From positions 9,669 through 73,668 of the forward strand of contig CAWJAN010000001.1 in assembly GCA_963840885.1 (NCBI GenBank): a stretch of DNA of 64,000 nucleotides, given 5' to 3'. The position numbers were made by a program, and so were the translations under genes. Origin of the DNA: an uncultured bacterium. GTDB taxonomy: Bacteria > Patescibacteriota > Minisyncoccia > Phycocordibacterales > GWA1-40-21. Under the pieces are notes generated by a model. The model was not told the DNA's origin and ran no database searches. It was given only the letters and a program-made list of their open reading frames with translations. This document shows positions 20,902-40,921 of the stretch, piece by piece. Every line of letters begins with the position of its first letter. Position 1 is the first letter of the stretch.

Positions 20902-21795
20902 ATGCCGTGCTCGGCTCGCGCTCCCCCGTCTCCCACGGTGTCGTCGTCGCCGCTCGCGCTCCTCGTCGTCCTCGCGGTCTCCTCCGCGGTCTCGGTGACC
21001 GCGCAGCGGCTGGCCGACGGCCAGGCGCCGAAGTTCACGGTGGATCCGTTCTGGCCGAAGCCGCTGCCCAACCGCTGGCTGCTCGGCCAGGTGGCGGGCG
21101 TGGCGGTCGACCCGCTCGACCACGTGTGGATCGTGCAGCGGCCGCGCACCCTGACCGACGACGAGAAGGGCGCCACGCTCAACCCGCCGCGCAACGAGTG
21201 CTGCGTGCCCGCGCCGCCGGTGATGGAGTTCGACAGCGAGGGCAACCTGCTCCAGGCCTGGGGCGGGCCCGGGCCGGGCTACGACTGGCCGGCCAACGAG
21301 CACGGCATCTTCGTGGACCCGTCCGGCAACGTGTGGCTGGCCGGCAACGGGGAGAAGGACGACCAGATCCTCAAGTTCAGCCGCGACGGCCGGTTCCTGA
21401 TGCAGATCGGCAAGCCGGGCTCGAGCGGCGGCGACGCCGACACCGCGCAACCTCAATCGCCCCGCCGACGTGCGGGTGGACGCGGCGGCCAACGAGCTGT
21501 ACGTGGCGGACGGCTACGCCAACCACCGGGTCATCGTGTTCGACGCGACCACCGGCGCCTACAAGCGCCACTGGGGCGCCAACGGCCGGCCCCCGGGCGA
21601 CGCGAGCGTGAAGCAGTTCCGGAACCCGGTGCACTGCGTGCGCATCGCGACCGACGGGCTCGTCTACGTCTGCGACCGGATGAACAACCGGATCCAGGTC
21701 TTCAAGAAGGACGGCACCTTCGTGAGCGAGTTCGCCCTGGCGATCTCGACGACCGGCAACGGATCGGTGTGGGACCTCGACTTCTCCCGCGACCC
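20902..21795 (+). CDS. secreted NHL-repeat beta-propeller protein, 3' truncated at the composition junction
   Basis: Signal peptide plus repeated VVFDATTG / LVYVCDRMNNRIQVF motifs. The frame runs into low-GC sequence at about 21,795 with no natural stop. Confidence 0.5.
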
Positions 21796-22596
21796 ATATT
21801 TATCGTCCTTATCGGTATTGTAAAATTCCACCCAGCCGCATCTTGCTCCCGGCCAAGGAAATTCTTTTGAGATTCCGCGCATCGCAAGCCCTGGAACGCC
21901 GTCTATCACTTGTGCAAGCTTCCTGTGCTCAACGCCGCCGTAATAAAGATTGGAATATATCTCATCCGATATGACGAATAGGTCGAATTCCCTTGCAATA
22001 TCGACGATTTGTTTCATTATTTCTATCGGAAATACGGCGCCTGTGGGATTGTCCGGATTTACGATTAAGACGGCACATATTTCAGGATGAGCTTTTATTT
22101 TTTCACGCAAATCTTTAAGGTCCGGATACCAATGGTTTTCCGGATCAAGCTTATATGTCATATGCGGCGAGCCTGCATGGGCGGCTTCGGCTGAGGAGTG
22201 AGTGGAATATGCTGGATTCGGCCCTATTACGCGCGAGCCGGGATTGAGATAATTATAAATGGTGGCGATAGCATCGCCAAGGCCGTTGAAGAATAAGATA
22301 TCGTCCGGTTTTATCTGTGCTCCGCCTTCCAGGTTTCTTTCGTATGCTATGTATTCTCTCGTATCCAGAAGTCCTTTTGTAGGCGAATAGCCGAAGCAGG
22401 AATTATCTTTCAAAACAGTGTCGGAAACTATTTTCTTTATCCAGGCCGGCACTTCCTCGCCTTTTGCCACCGGATCGCCGATATTTTCCCAGACGATTTT
22501 AACGCCGGTCTTTTCTATCTTGTTTGCAACATCCACTATCTCGCGGATTTCATAAACGAGCTCATCAGCTCCTGGATGTACTATATTATTTCGCAT
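21796..22596 (-). CDS. class I/II (PLP-dependent) aminotransferase, 3' truncated at the composition junction
   Basis: MRNNIVHPGADEL..NPDNPTGAVF..GLAMRGISKEFPWPGARCGWVEF; only about 265 aa of an expected 390 precede the junction. Confidence 0.7.
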
Positions 22597-30413: not shown

Positions 30414-30444
30414 GCTAGCTGGCAGTCTAGGACGATGTTGGAAC
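30414..30444. repeat. tRNA-Gln 3'-end-like repeat, copy R1
   Basis: GCTAGCTGGCAGTCTAGGACGATGTTGGAAC; immediately 3' of the minus-strand DUF305 gene. Confidence 0.6.
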
Positions 30445-31500: not shown

Positions 31501-31570
31501 GCTGGGGCTCGTGAGAGACGTTAGAACTGCGGTACTAGAATCCAATCACGATTACACTCTAAATATACCC
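31501..31570. repeat. tRNA-Gln 3'-end-like repeat, long form, copy R3
   Basis: GCTGGGGCTCGTGAGAGACGTTAGAACTGCGGTACTAGAATCCAATCACGATTACACTCTAAATATACC; near-identical to R4 and about 80% identical to R5 over the shared part. Confidence 0.7.
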
Positions 31571-31652
31571 GAGTTTTTTAAAAAAGAAAAATCGGACGAT
31601 ATAACCGATCTAAAATTCGTTGTATAAGGCTTTGCCACGATGAAAAAACTCG

Positions 31653-31982
31653 CTAGGAAACTTTGCTTTTAAGTTCTTTTATATAAGTTTTAAAAATCCA
31701 CTTTTCAAGGCGATTGTTTAAAAAATCATCATCAATACCATCAGCTGATATAGCTAATGCCCATTCTATTCCGAGTTTTTCATTCTTAAAAAATACAGCC
31801 TTACTCATCTTTTGGTCTTCTTTTTTAATTGGTTTACTATCTTTATCAAAAGTCATTTTAGATTCTTTTACATATACTTCCAAATCAGGGTCAATATCGT
31901 TAATAAGGGACTCGGCTTTCTCTTTTGTCTTCTCAAACCAATCTATTTCAGCAATATTTTCTTTTATGTTTAGTGTTTCCAT
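31653..31982 (-). CDS. hypothetical protein
   Basis: 109 aa acidic ORF, no recognised domain. Confidence 0.4.
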   Translation of the reverse strand: METLNIKENIAEIDWFEKTKEKAESLINDIDPDLEVYVKESKMTFDKDSKPIKKEDQKMSKAVFFKNEKLGIEWALAISADGIDDDFLNNRLEKWIFKTYIKELKSKVS

Positions 31983-32049
31983 ATTTTATATATTAACACA
32001 AATATATAATTTCTGACTTGACTTGAGCGTCGCAAGTGCTGGCTGGGGC

Positions 32050-32122
32050 TCGTGAGAGACGTTAGAACTGCGGTACTAAATTCCGATCAAGATTACACCC
32101 TAAATATACCTGAATTCCTAGG
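32050..32122. repeat. tRNA-Gln 3'-end-like repeat, long form, copy R4
   Basis: GCTGGCTGGGGCTCGTGAGAGACGTTAGAACTGCGGTACTAAATTCCGATCAAGATTACACCCTAAATATACC. Confidence 0.7.
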
Positions 32123-32257
32123 AGAGGAAAAGTCAGGTGATGACTATGTATCATCTCTTTTTCCGTTTTTACAACAAGGGTGAGAAATATGTTGTCCTAC
32201 AACTCGGTATTTTTTGTATGATTTAATAAACAGTGCCAAAAATGAAGTTTCCCATTT

Positions 32258-34120
32258 TTATTTAATTATGCTTTTAAAATATTTTTCGGTTTCCTTATCT
32301 ATAAAATAAACATAGCACCCTTTCATTCCGCGAGTCATAAGCGTGCGATAGGTATTTTTTATAATTTTATCCGATTTCTCAGAGGCAAACTTTGGATTAT
32401 TCTTAAAATCTGCTTTATATCCCTTTAATGAGGCATCTGTCTTAGCGCGTTTACTCGGATCAGTAATAACTTTTCCGTCTCTGACAACAAAATCCGGACC
32501 AACTATCACACCTATATAGTCAACCTCAAGACCCTGACAGGTATGTATGCAACCGACTTCATTTACTGATTTTGGTGAGATAATCCAAACGTTTCCATCT
32601 TCTGATAGGTTCCATTTCATTTCAAAGTCATATTCTGGAATGACAATATCTTTGAGTGATTTATTCTTCTTACTTATCCAGTTCCAACAGTAACCTGCGA
32701 CAAGGCGAGCCTTATTATTTATTTCGTTTTTATTGAAAATTAAATCTCTGAGTTCATTAGGTGAATCAACAATTTTAAAATCATAGTTAATACCTTCAAG
32801 TGTTTTGTTTGCCGTTTCTTTTATTTGTAATGAATTATCAAGCCATGAAAGATAACCATCTGATCCATTACATCTAAATTGCGATTCTAATTTTAAAAGA
32901 TGAGTTTTTGCGCCAATTTTTATTGCCCACTTTTCTATTTCTTCTTTTTTCCCTATATCGTGCCATGTGACTTTTTGATCTTCATCAATAAAAAATACCG
33001 AACATTTTGAAGCCTCTATTATTTCTTTAATCTGATTTTCTCCAAGATTTTTAAACATACCAGACTTTTCATTTAATCTATGAGCTTCATCAACAAGAAG
33101 ACAATCAAAAGTGTCCATATTACAGCTAATATAAGAGCCGGAACCGGTAAACATATTTGAAATTTGTGTTTTTTTAAGCGTTCCAGTTAGTTTACTCTCG
33201 AAAACTGCCCTCGGTGCAGCATTCTTTGTTACATATTGAGTATTCAAACCAAGCTTTGTTATTGCTACAAGCAAGTTAACGGCGACAACTGATTTACCTG
33301 TTCCTGGACCTCCATCAACCATGAGAACATTTTTATTATCACAAGTGGATTTTTTAGTTAGAGCTAAAGCAGTTTCATAAACAATTTTTTGGTCATCAAT
33401 CATGATAAATTCTTGATTGCCTTTTATCATTGATGCCATACTATCTGCAAGATTTTTTGATGGACGTATATCTCCATTATCAATTCTATATAATGTATTC
33501 TTTTTCTCTCCATGTTTAATAAACTTCGTAATAAAATCTTGAAGTTTTTTTTTGTCTCCTTTACAGAAAGCTGGAGCCTTTCCTAGGTAATCATTATAAA
33601 AGGAATCCAGAATTACAGCATTATCTAAGTAATTATGTAGGTAAGCACATGGTTCAAGTCCAATATTCTCTTCGTAGACAACAGCATTAAAACCATAAAG
33701 TAATGTTGAATATGACCATGCTTGATACGATGGATGTAATTCCTCGCTTGGACCACTTGCAAAGTGAGTAATAACCATTGCATCCTTATCTGTTTTTTGA
33801 ATATCAGTCCACTGTTTGAGTTCAATAATGACTACTTTTTCCTTACCATTTTCATCTTCCCCTGTAATAACAAAATCGATTCTGTTTTTGGTTCTAGGTA
33901 TTGAGTATTCGATAGCAACACCAGAATCATTCGGTATTTTGTCTGACTGCATCACTTTATACATTGCATCACCCAAAGAGTTCTTCCATGAGTTATATTC
34001 ACTACTTCCTACCTTAATATCAATATTGAGTTTTTCCTTTACTTTAGATTTTACGATGTCCTCAATCCCATTGGAAGCATCATTCAAAAATCCAAGCTTG
34101 GTGGATTGATAGACTATCAT
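32258..34120 (-). CDS. DUF2075-family protein: N-terminal PD-(D/E)xK nuclease-like domain fused to a Schlafen/SF1-like P-loop ATPase
   Basis: N-terminal IDFVITGEDENGKEKVVIIELKQW (D..ELK). Walker A VDGGPGTGKSVVAVNL. Walker B LLVDEAHRL. Start overlaps the MazG stop by 4 nt. Confidence 0.7.
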   Translation of the reverse strand: MIVYQSTKLGFLNDASNGIEDIVKSKVKEKLNIDIKVGSSEYNSWKNSLGDAMYKVMQSDKIPNDSGVAIEYSIPRTKNRIDFVITGEDENGKEKVVIIELKQWTDIQKTDKDAMVITHFASGPSEELHPSYQAWSYSTLLYGFNAVVYEENIGLEPCAYLHNYLDNAVILDSFYNDYLGKAPAFCKGDKKKLQDFITKFIKHGEKKNTLYRIDNGDIRPSKNLADSMASMIKGNQEFIMIDDQKIVYETALALTKKSTCDNKNVLMVDGGPGTGKSVVAVNLLVAITKLGLNTQYVTKNAAPRAVFESKLTGTLKKTQISNMFTGSGSYISCNMDTFDCLLVDEAHRLNEKSGMFKNLGENQIKEIIEASKCSVFFIDEDQKVTWHDIGKKEEIEKWAIKIGAKTHLLKLESQFRCNGSDGYLSWLDNSLQIKETANKTLEGINYDFKIVDSPNELRDLIFNKNEINNKARLVAGYCWNWISKKNKSLKDIVIPEYDFEMKWNLSEDGNVWIISPKSVNEVGCIHTCQGLEVDYIGVIVGPDFVVRDGKVITDPSKRAKTDASLKGYKADFKNNPKFASEKSDKIIKNTYRTLMTRGMKGCYVYFIDKETEKYFKSIIK

Positions 34121-34122
34121 TT

Positions 34123-34470
34123 TTACAATTGGTTATATTTTTTGTGATTACCTTTAGCTTTTTCAACTGAATATTTTTGTTCATTCTTTTCCATCTTATC
34201 ATCTAAAGATTTTACAAGATCAATATCTAAATCCTTACTCATGAGAAGTATCCAGTATAAAGTATCAGCTAATTCATCAGCGATATCAGTCTTATTGGTT
34301 TTTATATATTCTTCTATCTCCTTAGTATTTTTCCATTGGAAATGTTCCATCACCTCAGTAGCTTCAAGTACAAGTGAAATTGCTAAATCTTTAGGGTTAT
34401 GAAATTGTTTCCAATCTCGTGCATCTCTAAAATCTAATATTCTTTTTGAGAGTCTTTCAATATCTGACAT
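34123..34470 (-). CDS. MazG-like all-alpha nucleoside triphosphate pyrophosphohydrolase
   Basis: 115 aa with EExxE-type metal-binding motifs (LEATEVMEHF, ADELADTLYWIL). Confidence 0.6.
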   Translation of the reverse strand: MSDIERLSKRILDFRDARDWKQFHNPKDLAISLVLEATEVMEHFQWKNTKEIEEYIKTNKTDIADELADTLYWILLMSKDLDIDLVKSLDDKMEKNEQKYSVEKAKGNHKKYNQL

Positions 34471-34479
34471 TATTTTATT

Positions 34480-34950
34480 TTAAATTTTATTTTTTAATAT
34501 AAAGTTTTTTAACCATTCAGCATCTTCATTCATAATAAGTAATGAACCAGACGGTCTATTTTCTGAATTTCCATTATTTATTCGTATTTGGCCAGGAGAC
34601 GCCGTCCATATATTTATTCTACTCACTCCAAAAATCATAGCAATAATACCCTTTTTTATAATTATATTTTGGATACTACTAAAAGGAATGGATTTTGATT
34701 TTTTAATTAAAATCCCTGAATTTATTGTTAGTGTTTTTTCAGACACAATAAAATTAATACACGCATAATCTAAAAGTAACCAAATGGCAACCAAAATCAT
34801 AAATCTACCAAGAGAATTAAAAGTATCTGGCATATCGCTAACAAGACCACCAATAAATAAGGTAATTATAAAGAGTATTATAAAAAGCCAAGTTATTCCA
34901 TATAATCTTGCTGACCAAGGTAATTTTATTTTTTGATTAAGTGTAATCAT
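34480..34950 (-). CDS. membrane protein with bacterial PH domain (bPH_2, YdbS/YdbT-like)
   Basis: Two N-terminal TM helices then a PH-like region; ends 10 nt upstream of the MazG gene. Confidence 0.5.
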   Translation of the reverse strand: MITLNQKIKLPWSARLYGITWLFIILFIITLFIGGLVSDMPDTFNSLGRFMILVAIWLLLDYACINFIVSEKTLTINSGILIKKSKSIPFSSIQNIIIKKGIIAMIFGVSRINIWTASPGQIRINNGNSENRPSGSLLIMNEDAEWLKNFILKNKI

Positions 34951-35159
34951 TTGGTTTTTAATCAGATTAATTTTAATTATACTATAAAATAAATATTTAT
35001 CGTACTCAGGAACAATCTTAAAATGTTACTTAGTATGTTTTGGTCATTTGTTGTCTCTTGTGAGTCACTGCATATAAATTAAAATAGCTTTAAGAAGACC
35101 CATATAACACGAATGTCATAAAGCTATTAACGTAAACGGTATCTAGTCTGAAAATCCAA

Positions 35160-35210
35160 GGTTAGAACCGCAGTACTGGAATCTAACCATGATTACACTC
35201 TAGATATGCC
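35160..35210. repeat. tRNA-Gln 3'-end-like repeat, copy R5 (3' portion of the long form)
   Basis: GGTTAGAACCGCAGTACTGGAATCTAACCATGATTACACTCTAGATATGCC. Confidence 0.6.
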
Positions 35211-35252
35211 TAAGTTTATGAAAGAGATGCAATAATCTGATAGTGAAGAAAA

Positions 35253-35918
35253 TTATTTTTTTCTTGGGCTATAAAGTTTTTCTTCCGCAAGTTTAAGTGT
35301 TTCTTCACCTAATCTCTTGAGACTTTCAGGTAAGTTTTTCAAAACTTTATGAAGATCATCCAGATAATAATTTGGCATACCACTTTTTTTAACATACTCT
35401 CTTATTTCTGGAAGTGTTTCTTCAGCACCAAAACCTGCTTTTATATCCATTTCTAATTTTTCGATCATTCTTGAAATTTCTCCAACTTGTCCCTTATCTC
35501 TAAATTTTTCAATCTCGAAGTCTATAATTGTTCGTTTAATATCAAAAATTTCATTTTCAAATTTAGTCTGAATAGACTTAATTTGAATAGCAATAGAATC
35601 AGAACTTTTCTTTATTTGATTTTGAAAAGAATTTTTTGCATCAACCAATTCTTTTTCAAGAATACCTAACTTAGAATTTTTTACTTCTTTTCTTATTCTA
35701 AAAATAATTACTGTAATGATAATGAGACAAATTAATATAAACAATTCAAAAGGATACTTACAAACTAAAATGAATAATCTAGATAACTTATCAAACAAGT
35801 ATGAATATATTTGCCACTTTAATAAATAGTCAATTAAAGTCATCAAAGCAACCAGTGAAGTTATTATTGTAATAATCTTTCCTATTAGGGTTTTTGTCCA
35901 AAAATATATTTTTTGCAT
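35253..35918 (-). CDS. hypothetical membrane-anchored coiled-coil protein
   Basis: N-terminal TM helices then a long coiled-coil segment. Confidence 0.4.
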   Translation of the reverse strand: MQKIYFWTKTLIGKIITIITSLVALMTLIDYLLKWQIYSYLFDKLSRLFILVCKYPFELFILICLIIITVIIFRIRKEVKNSKLGILEKELVDAKNSFQNQIKKSSDSIAIQIKSIQTKFENEIFDIKRTIIDFEIEKFRDKGQVGEISRMIEKLEMDIKAGFGAEETLPEIREYVKKSGMPNYYLDDLHKVLKNLPESLKRLGEETLKLAEEKLYSPRKK

Positions 35919-35968
35919 TTTTTAAAAATTAATAATAAATCAAAGCAAGCTGAACTACACTTCTGTTA

Positions 35969-36120
35969 GCTGGGACTTATAACGGACGTTAGAACTATGA
36001 TGCTTAAATCTGAACCTGAAAATCTTTCGTTAGAACCAACCGATAATGTAGGATTGAAGCCACAAAATAGTAATTTTGAAACTCTAAATCCTACTTTGCT
36101 GGCCGACTCGAGTTAGAACC
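35969..36120. repeat. cluster of three partial tRNA-Gln 3'-end-like repeats (R6a-c)
   Basis: GCTGGGACTTATAACGGACGTTAGAAC (35969-35995); CGTTAGAACC (36028-36037); GCTGGCCGACTCGAGTTAGAACC (36098-36120). R6c is 17/23 identical to the tRNA-Gln 3' end. Confidence 0.6.
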
Positions 36121-36405
36121 ACCACTGGTCAAGCACCCCAATGTCATTCTTAGCTTTTTAAGTGTATCAGAACGACGCGACTCGAGCGACTTAAAAAGTG
36201 ACAAAAGTGACAATTTTATCGCTTGTAATATTCACTACCTCTTGCGAGACTTTCAAACGTTTCTTACAACACCATAATAAAGTTAGAGAAACTAGATAGA
36301 CCTGCAAATCCAACCGTAGAAACACTCACGCTTCTTGCGAAGGCACTGGAAACCTCTATCCCAGCATTGCTCTCTCATGAGGGATAGCTGACTTTCCTGA
36401 TTATT

Positions 36406-37368
36406 TTACTTGCCCCGCAGTAGAGTTAGGAAGAACGTCAAGATACCTGAAGCGAAAAAGGCAAAAGCGAAATTGTATTGGATTATGGTAACAATCAGGG
36501 ACAGCAACCAAAGAGCTACAGACACAACGACGAATAGCCAAACCCACTGAAGAACGAAAGCACTGAATTTGATACCGAAAGAAACTTTATTCTTTACTTC
36601 CTTCTTCGTAGATGCGGGTTTTTTGTTTAGAAATACCTCAATATGTTCTAGGATTTCTTTACTTGATCTAAATTCACCATTAGAAATACCAACATACTCT
36701 TTTGATTTCTCATCAAACAATTTCTCTTGGATTTTGTTTACATGTTCTATGGCTTTTTTGCTTTCTTCATCTGACATAGCGTCTTGTTTTGATTTTGGAT
36801 ACCAAATTTCTCGTCCTGTTGCATATTCATCAGTAATTTTTAATCCGGTAGTATCTGATGCGAGGATTTTCTCAATTTTAAGTGTTGCAGTCTTTATTTT
36901 TTCTGCGAACTGTCTCAGATGACGGCGATAATCATCCGGAGAAATTATTTCAGGGTGTTTAGAAAGTATATACATAGATACAGGCAACCAGCCCTCGTGC
37001 CATTCAACTTCTTTTTTAAGACCATCGATAAACCCTTTGGTCATCGAGCTCATAGAAGCCACTTCATTTCTGTCAGTAAGAATATCGGTCTCCAAAACAA
37101 CACCATCTTTCACACAGTATCGTTCTGGTGGCTCATCTACTCGTTCAGTTAGTCGAGTTTCCACTTTCACTGGATCAGTTTTAATGCGATATTCAAATTT
37201 TTCGGTACGGTAGTAGACATCATCCTTCAAACGCATTCTTGATTGATAAGTTTTTGAATCCGGAAACACATCAATTGTAAAATCTGCGTATTCGTCGTCA
37301 AGTGAAAGTGTATTATCGCCGTCTTCTTCAAAGATTTCTATTTTCATATTAAAAATATAATACCACAA
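36406..37368 (-). CDS. hypothetical protein with C-terminal TM helices
   Basis: 320 aa; soluble N-terminal region, two C-terminal TM helices; immediately downstream of the HEPN-motif gene. Confidence 0.45.
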   Translation of the reverse strand: MWYYIFNMKIEIFEEDGDNTLSLDDEYADFTIDVFPDSKTYQSRMRLKDDVYYRTEKFEYRIKTDPVKVETRLTERVDEPPERYCVKDGVVLETDILTDRNEVASMSSMTKGFIDGLKKEVEWHEGWLPVSMYILSKHPEIISPDDYRRHLRQFAEKIKTATLKIEKILASDTTGLKITDEYATGREIWYPKSKQDAMSDEESKKAIEHVNKIQEKLFDEKSKEYVGISNGEFRSSKEILEHIEVFLNKKPASTKKEVKNKVSFGIKFSAFVLQWVWLFVVVSVALWLLSLIVTIIQYNFAFAFFASGILTFFLTLLRGK

Positions 37369-37374
37369 AACTAG

Positions 37375-38142
37375 TTAAATTTCTGCTCCGTAAGCTTGGT
37401 CACAAATACCAACAACAAAATTAAAAAACTTCTGTGATAATTCCAAGAGTTTAGTATTTATCGGAGAATTTTTATTACGTGGATCATCTTGTACCATAAT
37501 CGCATAATTTAAATCTATCACTACTTTATCATTGATGTTATTCGGAGCTTCTACAATTTTAACCACACCTTCATGTTCAATAACATTTCTGTAATCAAAA
37601 AGAAGTTTGTATATGGTATCGTTATTTGAATTTTCAATTATACTTTTAAGTTCGGTGTTTTTCTTTTCAAGATCTTTAAGCTTTTTACAAAGTTCCCCCC
37701 AATCTGGTCTTTTAATTCCAAGACTATATATTTCATTTATCTCATTTGCCAACCAATCAAGAGAACTCATAAGAGAGATTGTTAGAGTATAAAAATATTC
37801 GTGTATTCTAATAGTTTCAATTGTAAATATCTCACCGGTATTTCCAGTTGATGGATCTGGATATAATGTAGAAGTTGGAACTCCCGATAGACCTATTGTG
37901 GTTATTGGTAATGTATATTGTCCAGTTTTTCTTGCCACACTAAGTTGTTGCTCTTTTAAATTAGAAAGTGCATCTTGAGCAAAGAGTAAACGCATAGTTA
38001 AAACATTTATTCCATATTTTTTAAGTGGGTTGTTGCCTATATTTTCAAGTTTGTTCCACAAAAACTCTTGGTTATTAAAAAATGGTGCTAGATCTGCCAA
38101 ACCACGATTATCTCTATAAGTGTTGAAGAAATATCCTTTCAT
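37375..38142 (-). CDS. hypothetical protein with a HEPN-like Rx4H motif (Abi-like)
   Basis: 255 aa; C-terminal YRNVIEHEG fits the HEPN Rx4-6H signature; no other domain recognised. Confidence 0.4.
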   Translation of the reverse strand: MKGYFFNTYRDNRGLADLAPFFNNQEFLWNKLENIGNNPLKKYGINVLTMRLLFAQDALSNLKEQQLSVARKTGQYTLPITTIGLSGVPTSTLYPDPSTGNTGEIFTIETIRIHEYFYTLTISLMSSLDWLANEINEIYSLGIKRPDWGELCKKLKDLEKKNTELKSIIENSNNDTIYKLLFDYRNVIEHEGVVKIVEAPNNINDKVVIDLNYAIMVQDDPRNKNSPINTKLLELSQKFFNFVVGICDQAYGAEI

Positions 38143-38298
38143 ATTTAATGTCTAACATAAAAACCTCTTATTCACAATTAATCTGCCATTGGATAGCAGA
38201 AGTTCGAATCCCACCTCCTATTATTTTATGGTGTGGTGTAATATGTCAAATATTCAGACTTGAGGGTCTATTTTAATACTTGTATTTAAATACAACTT

Positions 38299-38321
38299 GC
38301 TGTGCGGCTCGAGTTAGAACC
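38299..38321. repeat. tRNA-Gln 3'-end-like repeat, copy R7
   Basis: GCTGTGCGGCTCGAGTTAGAACC; 20/23 identical to R6c. Confidence 0.6.
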
Positions 38322-38394
38322 TTGCTCGGACAAGCCCCACAAGGTGATTTTGAATGATTTGAGTATATGAAATCAACGTGACTAGAGGTACTAG

Positions 38395-38601
38395 TTAAGC
38401 CTTACGCCAATGATCTCGTTTACCAATCTTTGTTATTCGAACACGCTCAATAAGAAGTTCTTGTGGGTCGAGCTTTTGCGCTTTCTCGATCGCCTTTTCT
38501 TGTGTAGTAGCAGTTGCAATAGGTTTTTTTACCTTAGGCGCCTTTACTCCATAATTACCATTTGGTAATCGTTCTACAAATAATTTTTTAGGTTTGTTCA
38601 T
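38395..38601 (-). CDS. DUF2188-family small protein
   Basis: VERLPNGNYGVKAP..TTQEKAIEKAQKL..ERVRITKIGKRDHW matches the DUF2188 pattern. Confidence 0.5.
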   Translation of the reverse strand: MNKPKKLFVERLPNGNYGVKAPKVKKPIATATTQEKAIEKAQKLDPQELLIERVRITKIGKRDHWRKA

Positions 38602-38615
38602 CTTTTACATTCTAT

Positions 38616-38638
38616 CACAAAAGTGACAAAAGTGACAG
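38616..38638 (-). promoter_or_regulatory. direct repeat GTGACAAAAGTGACA in the 5' region of the DUF2188 gene (operator-like)
   Basis: CACAAAAGTGACAAAAGTGACAG lies 15-37 nt upstream of the start codon; a second copy is at 36194-36213. Confidence 0.35.
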
Positions 38639-38641
38639 TTT

Positions 38642-39784
38642 TTAATCCTCTATATTTATATCTGGAATGTACCCGTAATTATGTAGAGCATTTAGTATTA
38701 CTGAGTACAAAGCTTCTTGAGGTACTTGGAAAAGTGGAAATAGTGGTAGCGCTTGAAGTGTTTCTGCATTACCAGCGTCTTTATCAGTTTGATAATGAAA
38801 CGAGAAATTAGTAAAATATACTGCATTATATGTTGATGGGTTTTCTGGTGTATTTGGTTCTTGTTTTTTTGCCGTATTTAAAATATCTTTTATCCATGTT
38901 TTTTGCTTAAAATCCTCAAAGTCTTCTTGCGGTGCATTTACATCAATAAAAATTATAAAGGGCATTTTCCCGCACTCGGTTTTCTTTAAAGCTTGATTAA
39001 ACAGACGTTGAATATCTCCCTTACGATTTTTTAAATTATCTACTTTACCTGGAGTATGCAGAACTCCAGCTCGATGTCTACTTTTTGCCTCAACAGCTAT
39101 TTCAGTACCTGTTTCCGTATGAATTGCAATAAACTCAGAATGTTTTTCTGTATTATCATCTATCCATTTTATGGTGAATCCTAATCTTGCAATTATTGCG
39201 GCTACCATAATTTCATATCTTGCACCTTGATATTGACGTGGTATACGTAAACGTTTAATAAGCGAATCAGGGAGGTTTGAACAATTTCTTAGGGTCGCTA
39301 TATCAAATGCAAGTGTCAACATAGATTTAACCCAACCATTTGGCGGGTATGCAAATATCCCATCCTTTGATGGTTCAACTATTTTTATTAGTTCTTTTTT
39401 CCACTGATCAGCATGAGAAAAACATTTAAAGATATGGTGCCTGTCATCTTCTGATAATAATTTCTGTTTTGAAAACCAATCAGACCCAAGTGTATCCCTA
39501 AGGGCGATCTGGACAAAATCATGGAAAGTTTGATTCAGTTCTGGACTTGAATATAGTTGATTGCCCAAGGCCCAGATTTTTTTATCCTTAAATATTATGG
39601 GTGTTACATAATTCATATAGATACCTCTACTTTGTAATTCCTCCTTTTTCTCTTTAGTTTTTTTGAAAAAATCCAATGCTTCTTGGGGAATTTTGTCTTG
39701 ATCCATATGACATTTTTTATATTTTTTCCCACTATTACATGGGCAGTGATCATTTCTGCCTATCTTCATACTATTTATAAACAC
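38642..39784 (-). CDS. SEC-C metal-binding motif protein with a possible PD-(D/E)xK-like core
   Basis: N-terminal NDHCPCNSGKKYKKCH SEC-C motif; internal EFIAIHTETGTEIAVEAKSR segment. Confidence 0.55.
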   Translation of the reverse strand: MFINSMKIGRNDHCPCNSGKKYKKCHMDQDKIPQEALDFFKKTKEKKEELQSRGIYMNYVTPIIFKDKKIWALGNQLYSSPELNQTFHDFVQIALRDTLGSDWFSKQKLLSEDDRHHIFKCFSHADQWKKELIKIVEPSKDGIFAYPPNGWVKSMLTLAFDIATLRNCSNLPDSLIKRLRIPRQYQGARYEIMVAAIIARLGFTIKWIDDNTEKHSEFIAIHTETGTEIAVEAKSRHRAGVLHTPGKVDNLKNRKGDIQRLFNQALKKTECGKMPFIIFIDVNAPQEDFEDFKQKTWIKDILNTAKKQEPNTPENPSTYNAVYFTNFSFHYQTDKDAGNAETLQALPLFPLFQVPQEALYSVILNALHNYGYIPDINIED

Positions 39785-40124
39785 ATAGATTCATAATGAT
39801 AGGATTTACGACTAAATATATTTCCCAAATAAATAAACAAACAAAAACAAGAAACATTGTTGAGATCACCACCTCTTCTTTTTTCTCATTTTTCCCTTCA
39901 AGTTTCGATTGATATTTTTTTAGTTCTTTATATAAAATATTAAAAAAATTGAATATGATATAGAGTATACCAATAGTTACCAAACTCTTAAGTGCTGTGA
40001 TGCCAGAGATATCCTTAATTGGTAGTGCACAATATGTTTGTGATAGGAATATTACCAAAGATAAACCAGCGGCAACCTCGAATAAAGATTTCATAACCGA
40101 AAATATCAGGAGCATTACTAGCAT
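39771..40124 (-). CDS. small hypothetical membrane protein
   Basis: 117 aa, three TM helices; overlaps the SEC-C gene start by 14 nt and the alternative ORF 40015..40281. Confidence 0.35.
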   Translation of the reverse strand: MLVMLLIFSVMKSLFEVAAGLSLVIFLSQTYCALPIKDISGITALKSLVTIGILYIIFNFFNILYKELKKYQSKLEGKNEKKEEVVISTMFLVFVCLFIWEIYLVVNPIIMNLCVYK

Positions 40125-40319
40125 TATGTTTGATCCCCATTTGGGTTTCTAACCAGTGACCATCTTTACCATCATGGCTCTGGTTTGAGCCTGAAGTATC
40201 CGAGCTTTTACCTCTGACATTTTTATTAAAGAGATCAACAATTTTCTTGATGATCTGCTGACGACTAAGATTTACTGACATGAATAAATACTAGCAAAAA
40301 TAAGAGAATATTGCGACCC

Positions 40320-40823
40320 CTACTTTATATTATCAAGAACAATTTTAGCTTCTGCCAATAGTGATTTTGTAACACTTAAATTCCAAGCTCTCATCGTGGA
40401 GTGCCATCTTTTGAATTTAAGAAATTGTTCCCAAGTTAATTCAATAATTCTTTTAGGTTTATAGTCTTTAAAGATTTGAACAATAATGACATATTCAAAC
40501 TTTTTGTCTGGAATAATATAATCGTCTTTTTCGCCAACACCGTAAAAAACGCCAGTGGTACTACTCGGTTCAGAAATTGTCTTAATACTGTATCTTTCTC
40601 CTTTTCTACTTAAAGCATCTACATTCTGAGTACCTTCGGGAGCAGCTTGAAGATTAGGCATTCCACTTATTGAATTATAAGTTTCAACAGCCAAAAATTC
40701 CCCTCGTTCACCAACGATGTTATTTGTTCTAACTAGGTTACGTTTTTTTAATTCTTGCTGAATATCAGCATATCCTAGCCAAAGCTCTTCATTGTTTAAT
40801 TCATCAGTATTTACTTTTTTCAT
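40320..40823 (-). CDS. hypothetical protein (possible nuclease-like fold)
   Basis: 167 aa; GERGEFLAVETY segment; first gene next to tRNA-Gln; ORF 40015..40281 might be a frameshifted continuation. Confidence 0.4.
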   Translation of the reverse strand: MKKVNTDELNNEELWLGYADIQQELKKRNLVRTNNIVGERGEFLAVETYNSISGMPNLQAAPEGTQNVDALSRKGERYSIKTISEPSSTTGVFYGVGEKDDYIIPDKKFEYVIIVQIFKDYKPKRIIELTWEQFLKFKRWHSTMRAWNLSVTKSLLAEAKIVLDNIK

Positions 40824-40850
40824 AGCTATCTTTGAGCTAGCTCAAACTTG

Positions 40851-40921
40851 CTGGGGGACTTGGATTCGAACCAAGATAACAGCCTTCAAAGGGCCGTGTC
40901 CTACCATTAGACGATCCCCCA
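40851..40921 (-). tRNA. tRNA-Gln (anticodon UUG)
   Basis: Reverse complement folds as a cloverleaf: 7-bp acceptor UGGGGGA/UCCCCCA with U1:A72, T-arm CTTGG-TTCGAAT-CCAAG, anticodon loop CTTTGAA. Confidence 0.75.

Follow-up and report, generated by a model that had tools for sequence, protein, structure and literature searches.

A SEC-C motif protein with a predicted PD-(D/E)xK nuclease fold and a widespread intergenic unit in a defense-type island beside a tRNA-Gln gene

RESULTS

Genes and features at the locus

In a window of 64,000 nucleotides (nt), the whole stretch of DNA analyzed here (contig CAWJAN010000001.1 of an uncultured bacterium of the Patescibacteriota, GenBank assembly GCA_963840885.1), we examined a gene for a protein with a SEC-C zinc motif, the small open reading frame (ORF) that follows it, and a direct repeat between the two. 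A reading made from the sequence alone had singled out these three features, and each of them is present at or near the positions that it gave. The repeat is part of a conserved intergenic block, hereafter the unit, of which the window holds two copies, unit A in the neighboring module and unit B around the small ORF. These features and the tRNA gene that anchors the surrounding island are as follows (window positions).

38642 to 39769, minus strand: SEC-C zinc-knuckle protein, 375 amino acids (aa), with a C-terminal PD-(D/E)xK nuclease-like domain (E186, E212, E227, K229) (Pfam, alignment, AlphaFold)
38614 to 38642, minus strand: arm part of unit B, TGTCACTTT TGTCACTTT TGTGATAGA in gene orientation, abutting the SEC-C stop codon (nhmmer)
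38395 to 38601, minus strand: DUF2188-like ORF, 68 aa, which fills the variable slot separating arm repeat and 5' box in unit B (Pfam, nhmmer)
38298 to 38387, minus strand: 5' box, AT-rich spacer, and tRNA-3'-end-like core (...GGTTCTAACTCGAGCCGCACAGCAAGTT) of unit B (nhmmer model positions 29 to 118, E = 1.2e-12)
36097 to 36212, minus strand: unit A, complete short form, with TGTCACTTTTGTCAC, 5' box CGCTCGAGTCGCGTCG, spacer, and core ...GGTTCTAACTCGAGTCGGCCAGCAA (nhmmer E = 3e-27, alignment A4)
40850 to 40921, minus strand: tRNA-Gln(TTG), the island anchor (ARAGORN, Rfam, repeat family D3)

Fold and family of the SEC-C protein

The SEC-C gene is listed as an ORF at 38642-39784 (minus strand), and this 380-aa frame with a GTG start exists as the sequence-only reading had described it, but homologues and an independent gene call both place the start at an ATG at 39769 (MKIGRNDHCPC..., 375 aa). 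The zinc motif that had been recognized at its N terminus is confirmed by Pfam (SEC-C, PF02810, 32.7 bits against a cut-off of 20.4, aa 10 to 27 of the 380-aa form), which finds no other domain in the protein. All ligands of the C-x-C-x8-C-H motif (C9, C11, C20, and H21) are present; across an alignment of 38 diverse family members (A1), C9 and C11 never vary, and at least 90% of the homologues keep C20. Also invariant among the 38 are T81, H83, F85, H111, D156, R173, Q181, G182, A183, Y185, E186, E212, F213, E227, K229, S230, D276, N278, T320, N321, H325, and Y326.

The segment EFIAIHTETGTEIAVEAKSR, in which a PD-(D/E)xK core had been suspected, is present, and fold prediction, proposed at the time as a check, bears the suspicion out. 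An AlphaFold (AF2) model of the protein is confident (predicted local distance difference test [pLDDT] 91.7, predicted template modeling score [pTM] 0.88). In the model, E186 lies within helix 1, E212 opens strand 2, and E227-x-K229 is in strand 3, which is followed by a helix and then by a strand with F-I-D-x-N at its end. The C-terminal half adopts the alpha-beta-beta-beta-alpha-beta core of the PD-(D/E)xK superfamily, and the residues of the motif (E)...(D/E)...(D/E)xK fall on the helix and strands where they are expected. Foldseek matches are weak and of the same class (SfsA at E = 3.6e-3, then HindIII, DdmD, FokI, and EcoRV). Because the AlphaFold model, the invariant residues, and the fold matches agree, we take the modeled protein to have a PD-(D/E)xK nuclease fold and motif, and it would probably act as a metal-dependent DNA endonuclease of the restriction or defense type.

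No sequence link of the nuclease domain to a named family was found in Pfam, NCBIfam, PHROGs, or PDB (phmmer and hmmsearch), where SEC-C alone was recovered; the PDB sequence matches are SecA and YchJ peptides. Likewise, PADLOC-DB contains no full-length match, only matches of the ~25-aa SEC-C motif to E2/E1-E2/PDC-S12 models. The protein is thus a new, uncharacterized branch of a known superfamily, and no description of the family was found in the full-text literature. Its relatives number more than 1,000 at E of 1e-3 or below among 90% clusters, and a profile search of 1.84 billion representatives returned 913 clusters at E of 1e-30 or below (a family size of over 900, counted in clusters at 50% identity). 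Many of the 913 begin at profile position 60 to 80 and therefore do not include the SEC-C motif, which is optional in this family. Members are encoded in 214 of 185,579 species genomes, with hosts that include Patescibacteria, Actinomycetes, Solirubrobacterales, Omnitrophota, and Planctomycetes; the nearest relatives of the protein in the window are from Patescibacteria.

Genomic neighbors of the SEC-C gene and the small ORF

The 68-aa ORF is real, although its assignment to DUF2188 (PF09954) is borderline: at 21.6 bits (E = 2.4e-4, model positions 7 to 39 of 62), it falls 0.4 bits under the cut-off of 22.0, and we call it DUF2188-like. It gives no BLASTP alignment with a canonical DUF2188 protein from a unit locus and no PHROG match, and it weakly matches PADLOC PDC-S16 (E = 1e-3). 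The protein has a single nonidentical homologue (72% identity), whose locus contains other small genes and a ~379-aa zinc-finger protein two genes later, and neither a SEC-C gene nor the repeat.

The SEC-C gene and the small ORF had been presented side by side; that the two form a pair is not supported by comparison across 80 SEC-C homologue loci. In none of these loci does tblastn find a relative of the small protein adjoining the SEC-C gene (four weak matches, at E of 0.15 or above, lie elsewhere, away from it), and none carries the TGTCAC repeat, which is thereby not tied to the SEC-C family. Nor did clustering of the neighborhoods, another of the checks proposed, disclose a fixed partner: the 111 immediate neighbors match 142 Pfam families, each found in at most 4 proteins. 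A minority of neighbors do recur, namely, large serine recombinases (9 loci, median distance of 65 bp) and type I restriction-modification genes. A two-gene system of the SEC-C protein and the small protein was rejected for this lack of co-occurrence, and the SEC-C gene is best read as a solitary cargo gene.

The repeat in the window

As the sequence-only reading had noticed, the 15-mer GTGACAAAAGTGACA occurs exactly at both 38623-38637 and 36198-36212, the latter in the neighboring module. The stretch common to both copies extends over 24 nt (36194-36217 versus 38619-38642, 96% identical), and a third, degenerate repeat unit, ATCACAAAA, is present at 38614. Chance would yield 0.05 matches of the 15-mer, and the observed count was reached in 0 of 100 shuffles. 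The copy at 38623 precedes the DUF2188-like ORF, and a promoter-like site, CTGTCA-18-TAGAAT with an upstream TG, overlaps the arm repeat of unit B; the only gene that the other copy precedes is a truncated XRE gene, which reads from the opposite strand.

An operator-like, regulatory role for the repeat is plausible, since in three related loci it lies 90 to 140 nt upstream of a serine recombinase gene. A stronger claim had been made, that of an operator shared between two modules and a common regulator, with none visible, and it finds partial support; no intact regulator was found in the island, and the two copies are not due to chance, but the 15-mer opens a widespread unit that marks module ends and is not a private operator. 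It is common to the two modules because both end in the same kind of unit, not because of a dedicated regulator of the cargo. Accordingly, the repeat is best read as a boundary or control sequence of a mobile element, not as a private switch linking two modules.

Anatomy of the conserved unit

An exact 18-mer scan showed the sequence to be widespread in metagenomes (at least 120 stretches), and about 45 of the 120 listed stretches share a much longer conserved context with copy A of the window. From an alignment of 40 copies (A4), we built a DNA profile of about 120 positions (nhmmer), with the sequence of unit A in the training set and that of unit B outside it. This profile matches 65 of the 120 listed stretches and 2 viral contigs, but it has no match in the loci of SEC-C and DUF2188 homologues. 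The arm of unit B is matched at 38619-38638 (minus strand, model positions 2 to 21, E = 4e-4).

The unit is a conserved intergenic block of about 120 to 165 nt, of which the repeat forms the start (the first 20 bases). In gene orientation, its parts are as follows.

(i) Often, a palindrome of the form GTTACA-N7-TGTMAC.

(ii) TGTCACTTTTGTCAC, which contains the TGTCAC-TTT-TGTCAC repeat and is followed by a run of T.

(iii) A box, (C/A)GC(T/A)CGAG, here termed the CNCGAG box, and about 8 additional nt.

(iv) An AT-rich spacer of ~35 A/T-rich nucleotides.

(v) CCTTAC.GGGCTTG.

(vi) GGTTCTAGC(C/T)CGAG..GGCC.GC(C/A)A.

A manual count that starts with the G of GGTTC and closes with the final CCA or CAA gives a core of 24 nt, the length of tRNA positions 53 to 76, and the CNCGAG box is a second partial copy of a tRNA end; box, core, and palindrome share a half-site-like sequence that covaries within loci. 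The edges of the unit are sharp: seven near-identical units are conserved from the palindrome to exactly ...GCCCGC(CA), after which divergence is complete, and their flanks are unrelated on both sides.

RNAalifold detected no consensus structure, hairpin, or covariation in the 40 units; Rfam, both at gathering thresholds and at E of 10 or below, recovered only the real tRNA-Gln within 29.5 to 41.5 kb, and ARAGORN found no tRNA or tmRNA in the units. With neither a consensus RNA structure nor an Rfam match, the unit is read as a DNA-level element. There is no conserved -10 element after the repeat in short units, and no description of the unit was found in the full-text literature.

Unit B is split between repeat and box by 231 nt holding the DUF2188-like ORF, and the same split point holds small ORFs in four other loci (L089, L146, L183, and L197). 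Three of these (L089, L146, and L197) have a conserved slot ORF of 49 to 53 aa whose 3' end is the box, and L183 has a 155-aa ORF in the slot, flanked by a 26-nt duplication that includes the box. The 49- to 53-aa ORFs (L089 503-652, L146 2974-3123, L197 1243-1404) start right after the TGTCAC repeat and share the motif KNWTKE..DR.V...F..LL..D.KQNPDRYKK, their last codons being the unit's 5' box. L089 and L146 show synonymous differences, which suggests that the slot ORF is translated into a genuine small protein, perhaps one that binds DNA or sets directionality.

The 9-nt period GTGACAAAA is also found in longer simple tandem arrays (L088, L102, L106, L109, L141, and L142) on contigs without the unit; these copies are unrelated to it.

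Genomic context of the units in metagenomes

The gene just before the unit is variable, of a defense type, and co-oriented with it in 32 of 44 cases; the 23 pre-unit proteins compared with Pfam include OLD-type ATPase-TOPRIM, Abi_alpha, reverse transcriptase, NERD-UvrD helicase, HNH, NUDIX, HD, and RusA proteins. Arrays of at least two units in the same orientation, 0.7 to 4.6 kb apart, occur in several loci. Recurrent in unit loci are a large serine recombinase (11 loci), a LexA-like S24 repressor (11 loci), a ParB-methyltransferase (12 loci), small and large terminase subunits, a ~340-aa zinc-finger/helix-turn-helix (HTH) protein (9 loci), and canonical DUF2188 proteins (3 loci), whereas no replication initiator recurs beside the units. 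On a typical map, the recombinase, terminase, and methylase genes occupy one strand, and the LexA-like gene, variable cargo, and unit occupy the other; in phage-like genomes, units close the cargo operon, and L167 has a unit that precedes such an operon.

In three loci (L086, L131, and L196), the repeat and relatives of GTTACA/TGTAAC lie 90 to 140 nt upstream of the start codon of the serine recombinase, which reads away from the core. The LexA-like repressor was considered as the binder of the hexamers and rejected, GTKACA hexamers being present in 0 of 7 LexA-like promoters of unit loci. A protein of ~340 to 430 aa with a zinc ribbon and an excisionase-like HTH (HPKGFH..C.IC...WYDE.GIKCL.C), without a Pfam or PHROG match, is encoded one to three genes before units in L107, L130, L144, L152, L164, L183, and L081-L083, and also two genes past the single homologue found for the DUF2188-like protein of the window; it is a candidate for binding the hexamer sites.

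Directly 3' of intact tRNA genes and of unit cores, we also observed a palindrome, CCTCGTGCTAGCACGAGG, composed of two inverted copies of the CNCGAG box around TA/CTAG (L097 4290-4314, L188 6694-6711, L203 8666-8685, and also L174, L193, and L204). Crossover by a serine recombinase could take place there, or the palindrome could form the hairpin of a tRNA trailer.

The island beside tRNA-Gln

The region is a defense-type island, as had been surmised, with housekeeping genes on its flanks and modules all on the minus strand. Beyond the features given above, it contains the following.

40831 to 40846: palindrome TTTGAGCTAGCTCAAA, which opens module 1 immediately behind the tRNA (sequence)
40320 to 40823, minus strand: methyl-directed type II restriction endonuclease-like cargo gene, 167 aa (PADLOC mREase_II, E = 2.5e-58)
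40015 to 40281, minus strand: what we read as the pseudogene remnant of a LlaMI-type restriction endonuclease, reduced to an N-terminal fragment (RE_LlaMI of Pfam at 41.2 bits, covering positions 2 to 48 of the 266 in the model)
39771 to 40124, minus strand: predicted membrane ORF, 114/117 aa, a candidate gene that ends 1 nt before the SEC-C start (ORF list)
38280 to 38295: palindrome TTGTATTTAAATACAA, which opens module 2 immediately behind the unit B core (sequence)
36229 to 36390, plus strand: truncated XRE-family HTH gene without a start codon, reading away from unit A (translations; one homologue, 52% identical, in L188)

Module 1, the tRNA-proximal one, extends on the minus strand from about 40849 to 38298 and comprises, in order from tRNA-Gln, the palindrome, the restriction enzyme, the LlaMI fragment, the membrane ORF, the SEC-C gene, and unit B, which includes the DUF2188-like ORF. 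Module 2 consists of a palindrome, a HEPN-like protein (Pfam 25.3 bits, below the cut-off of 27.1), a membrane protein, the truncated XRE gene on the other strand, and unit A; the XRE fragment was rejected as a regular part of the unit, its single homologue being in a different position. Further modules carry a Schlafen-type helicase with MazG-like and bPH_2 proteins, a DUF2726 protein, and others.

The last 24 nt of tRNA-Gln with its flank (GGTTCGAATCCAAGTCCCCCAGCAAGTT) are collinear with the unit cores: those of units A and B align with tRNA-Gln positions 53 to 76 and share the end ...CAGCAA(GTT), i.e., CAGCAAGTT, all on the minus strand. The core motif, GTTAGAAC in plus-strand notation, is found 8 times where 1.26 copies would be expected, and 7 of the 8 copies are on the plus strand at 31520-38320, within repeat families D1 to D3. 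Palindromes related to that following tRNA-Gln (CTCGTGCTAGCACGAG) stand after tRNAs and unit cores in other loci.

The LlaMI-type gene stops after about 68 residues and is overlapped by the membrane ORF; the SEC-C segment may have replaced the rest of this restriction gene. The module at 32258-34950 (minus strand) encodes the Schlafen group-3/DUF2075 helicase (E = 3e-105), which also matches the PADLOC PDC-S41, Nhi, and AbiO models, together with the MazG-like pyrophosphohydrolase and the bPH_2 membrane protein. Additional tRNA-3'-end-like remnants (GCTGG...GTT(A/G)GAAC) are found at 30418, 30934, 31501-31600, 32042-32141, 35142-35241, and 35964-36036; they form two or three sequence subfamilies, separate small co-oriented modules, have neither a unit-profile match nor the TGTCAC repeat, and may have been left behind by other families of elements. 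Oriented the opposite way, a fragment resembling a tRNA 3' end (...GCAGAAGTTCGAATCCCACCTCC, 38182-38222, plus strand) lies between the palindrome of module 2 and the HEPN-like gene, where it overlaps a terminator-like hairpin and adjoins a strong promoter-like site, TTGACA-18-AATAAT (38249-38220, minus strand).

The window itself is composite, with about 70% G+C to roughly 21.6 kb and about 40% afterwards, and all of the above lies in the low-G+C part. The reading of an aminotransferase ORF (21664-22596, minus strand) breaks down at the drop, which falls near 21.6-21.8 kb, and the window looks like two unrelated contigs joined together.

DISCUSSION

On balance, we favor the view that the SEC-C gene is the solitary nuclease cargo of the tRNA-proximal module in an island of small modules accreted beside tRNA-Gln, that this module is closed by an end and control unit of the right-attachment-site (attR) type, and that the DUF2188-like ORF occupies a slot in that unit. 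The cargo protein has a C-x-C-x8-C-H zinc knuckle at its N terminus and a PD-(D/E)xK fold at its C terminus, with a conserved domain in between. The unit would serve a family of integrative, phage-like elements with a large serine recombinase as their attR-type end and as a control region, and its hexamer sites would bind a protein controlling the gene beside the attachment site, that is, the recombinase on one side or the small ORF in the variable slot on the other, a slot that in unit B would be filled by the DUF2188-like ORF. Units A and B would then be the leftovers of successive insertions, with the recombinase gone or acting in trans. What would be expected of an attR is seen in the orientation of units A and B, each a distal copy of the target 3' end oriented like the intact tRNA, and in the seven near-identical units, whose conservation stops at the putative crossover point.

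Several observations weigh against this explanation. No recombinase was found at 21.6 to 64 kb of the window, among the best 25 of 58 Pfam families, and in most loci with a serine recombinase the unit is ~10 kb away from that gene, not adjacent to it. The tRNA link is weak outside the window: an upstream tRNA fits the left attachment site (attL) by position in 5 of 9 tRNA-containing loci, but housekeeping genes intervene between tRNA and unit in L203, L169, L188, and L097, the four of the five that lie outside the window, for which reason the upstream tRNA was rejected as a general attL and kept for the window only. The promoter-like site over the repeat is no better than background (25 such sites found versus 20 expected), and arm-type repeats are not known to be required by serine integrases, so that any role of the hexamers is putative.

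The main rival of the accretion of element ends takes the unit (~165 nt) for the recombination and control site of a cassette system. Recombinase-less modules, each a cargo plus a unit, would be captured serially by a putative trans-acting serine recombinase of phage-like elements, which would insert defense modules at tRNA 3' ends and in phage cargo regions; the target would be a tRNA 3' end or another unit, and the logic would be that of integrons or of cis-mobilizable elements (CIMEs) and tycheposons, not that of decayed whole prophages. We regard this as possible but rather unlikely. It would account for the density of the island, in which at least two units and at least five further core remnants fall within 10 kb and modules of 0.5 to 3 kb share one strand and contain no phage genes, and it fits the unit arrays of other loci, the placement of units beside cargo operons in phage-like genomes, the insertion in L183 with its duplicated box, and the covarying half-sites of box, core, and palindrome. 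Nevertheless, tandem integration followed by deletion could yield the same picture, and neither an integron-type attC hairpin (in the units) nor IntI (in the window, among the best 25 of 58 Pfam families) was found. Should serial capture prove to be true, it would represent a serine-recombinase route to defense islands in genomes otherwise showing few mobile elements, and integron-like arrays in small-genome (Patescibacteria-type) bacteria.

We consider it improbable that the unit is instead a gene for a small structured RNA promoted from the repeat (a tRNA-like small RNA or a signal for processing), or an origin of replication in which iterons accompany an AT-rich stretch. The T-loop and acceptor mimic of exact tRNA length and the direct repeats followed by an AT-rich spacer speak for such readings, but the RNAalifold and Rfam results, the missing -10 element, and the lack of an initiator recurring beside the unit argue against them. 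Very unlikely, and largely refuted by the lack of co-occurrence, is a dedicated two-gene defense or toxin-antitoxin system of the SEC-C nuclease and the DUF2188-like protein, with the repeat as the operator of a regulator encoded elsewhere: the genes are adjacent, co-oriented, and 40 nt apart, the repeat overlaps a promoter-like site before the small ORF, and the ORF has its weak PDC-S16 matches, and yet the 80 homologue loci, the diversity of the immediate neighbors, and the context of the only homologue of the small protein all fail to show such a pair. Coincidence or low complexity as the origin of the two 15-mer copies can practically be dismissed: the sequence is A/T-rich and its GTGACAAAA period forms tandem arrays in unrelated contigs (L088, L109, and L142), but the shuffles, and the position of both copies in the same register of a conserved unit (profile E = 3e-27 for one; 1e-12 plus 4e-4 for the other), refute a chance origin.

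The family of SEC-C/PD-(D/E)xK proteins is large, has no Pfam domain beyond a 19-residue motif, and resides in variable neighborhoods rich in mobile elements, which makes it a concrete candidate for a new stand-alone nuclease to enter into defense assays. The unit profile (about 120 positions), for its part, provides a handle on module boundaries and defense-rich cargo in metagenomes of uncultured bacteria and phages.

The C-terminal half of the SEC-C protein shares with PD-(D/E)xK nucleases (HindIII, NgoMIV, Hjc, CdiA-CT, NucC, and HamA) the core of a helix, three strands, a helix, and a strand, with an acidic residue in the first helix, E212 opening strand 2, and E227-x-K229 within strand 3. 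It differs from them in having no sequence-profile link to a named family and in possessing a conserved middle domain of ~115 aa (invariant T81, H83, F85, H111, and D156) and an optional N-terminal SEC-C knuckle; it is also encoded without a methyltransferase or other fixed partner. With SEC-C proteins (the SecA C terminus and the YchJ/YecA family), it has in common the C-x-C-x8-C-H zinc-binding motif, but here the motif is at the N terminus of a nuclease-fold protein and absent from many family members, and there is no other resemblance to SecA or YchJ.

With the gene cassettes of integrons, each followed by an attC site, the modules have in common that variable genes stand in co-oriented arrays, with a conserved element of a recombination type behind each of them. 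However, the 40 units have no attC-type imperfect hairpin with R''/R' cores, presenting a mimic of the tRNA 3' end instead, and no IntI was found in the window (again among the best 25 of 58 families); on these grounds, identity with integrons was rejected.

Prophage KplE1 has a tyrosine integrase with arm sites and the directionality factor TorI, whereas unit loci have a serine-type recombinase. The control region of its integrase gene, intS, is reported to be embedded in the attachment site (PMC2951348); the unit resembles it in having repeated putative protein-binding sites between the attachment core and the start of the recombinase gene, and a dual role in recombination and transcription would be possible for both.

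The CIMEs of Streptococcus thermophilus are products of the tandem accretion of integrative elements. With them and with the tycheposon islands of Prochlorococcus, a further comparison for the accretion of tRNA-targeting elements (10.1101/2020.12.28.424599), our island shares modules that lie to one side of an intact tRNA gene and each end in a copy of that gene's 3' terminus, along with sharply bounded conservation, defense-rich cargo, and the lack of a recombinase within the modules. The differences are that loci related to ours carry a large serine recombinase and not a tyrosine integrase, that the unit has hexamer repeats, a box that is a second partial tRNA-end copy, and a slot for a small ORF, and that the modules in the window are very small (0.5 to 3 kb), their recombination being putative. 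The island resembles tandem accretion at tRNA genes but differs in the type of recombinase and in its composite unit.

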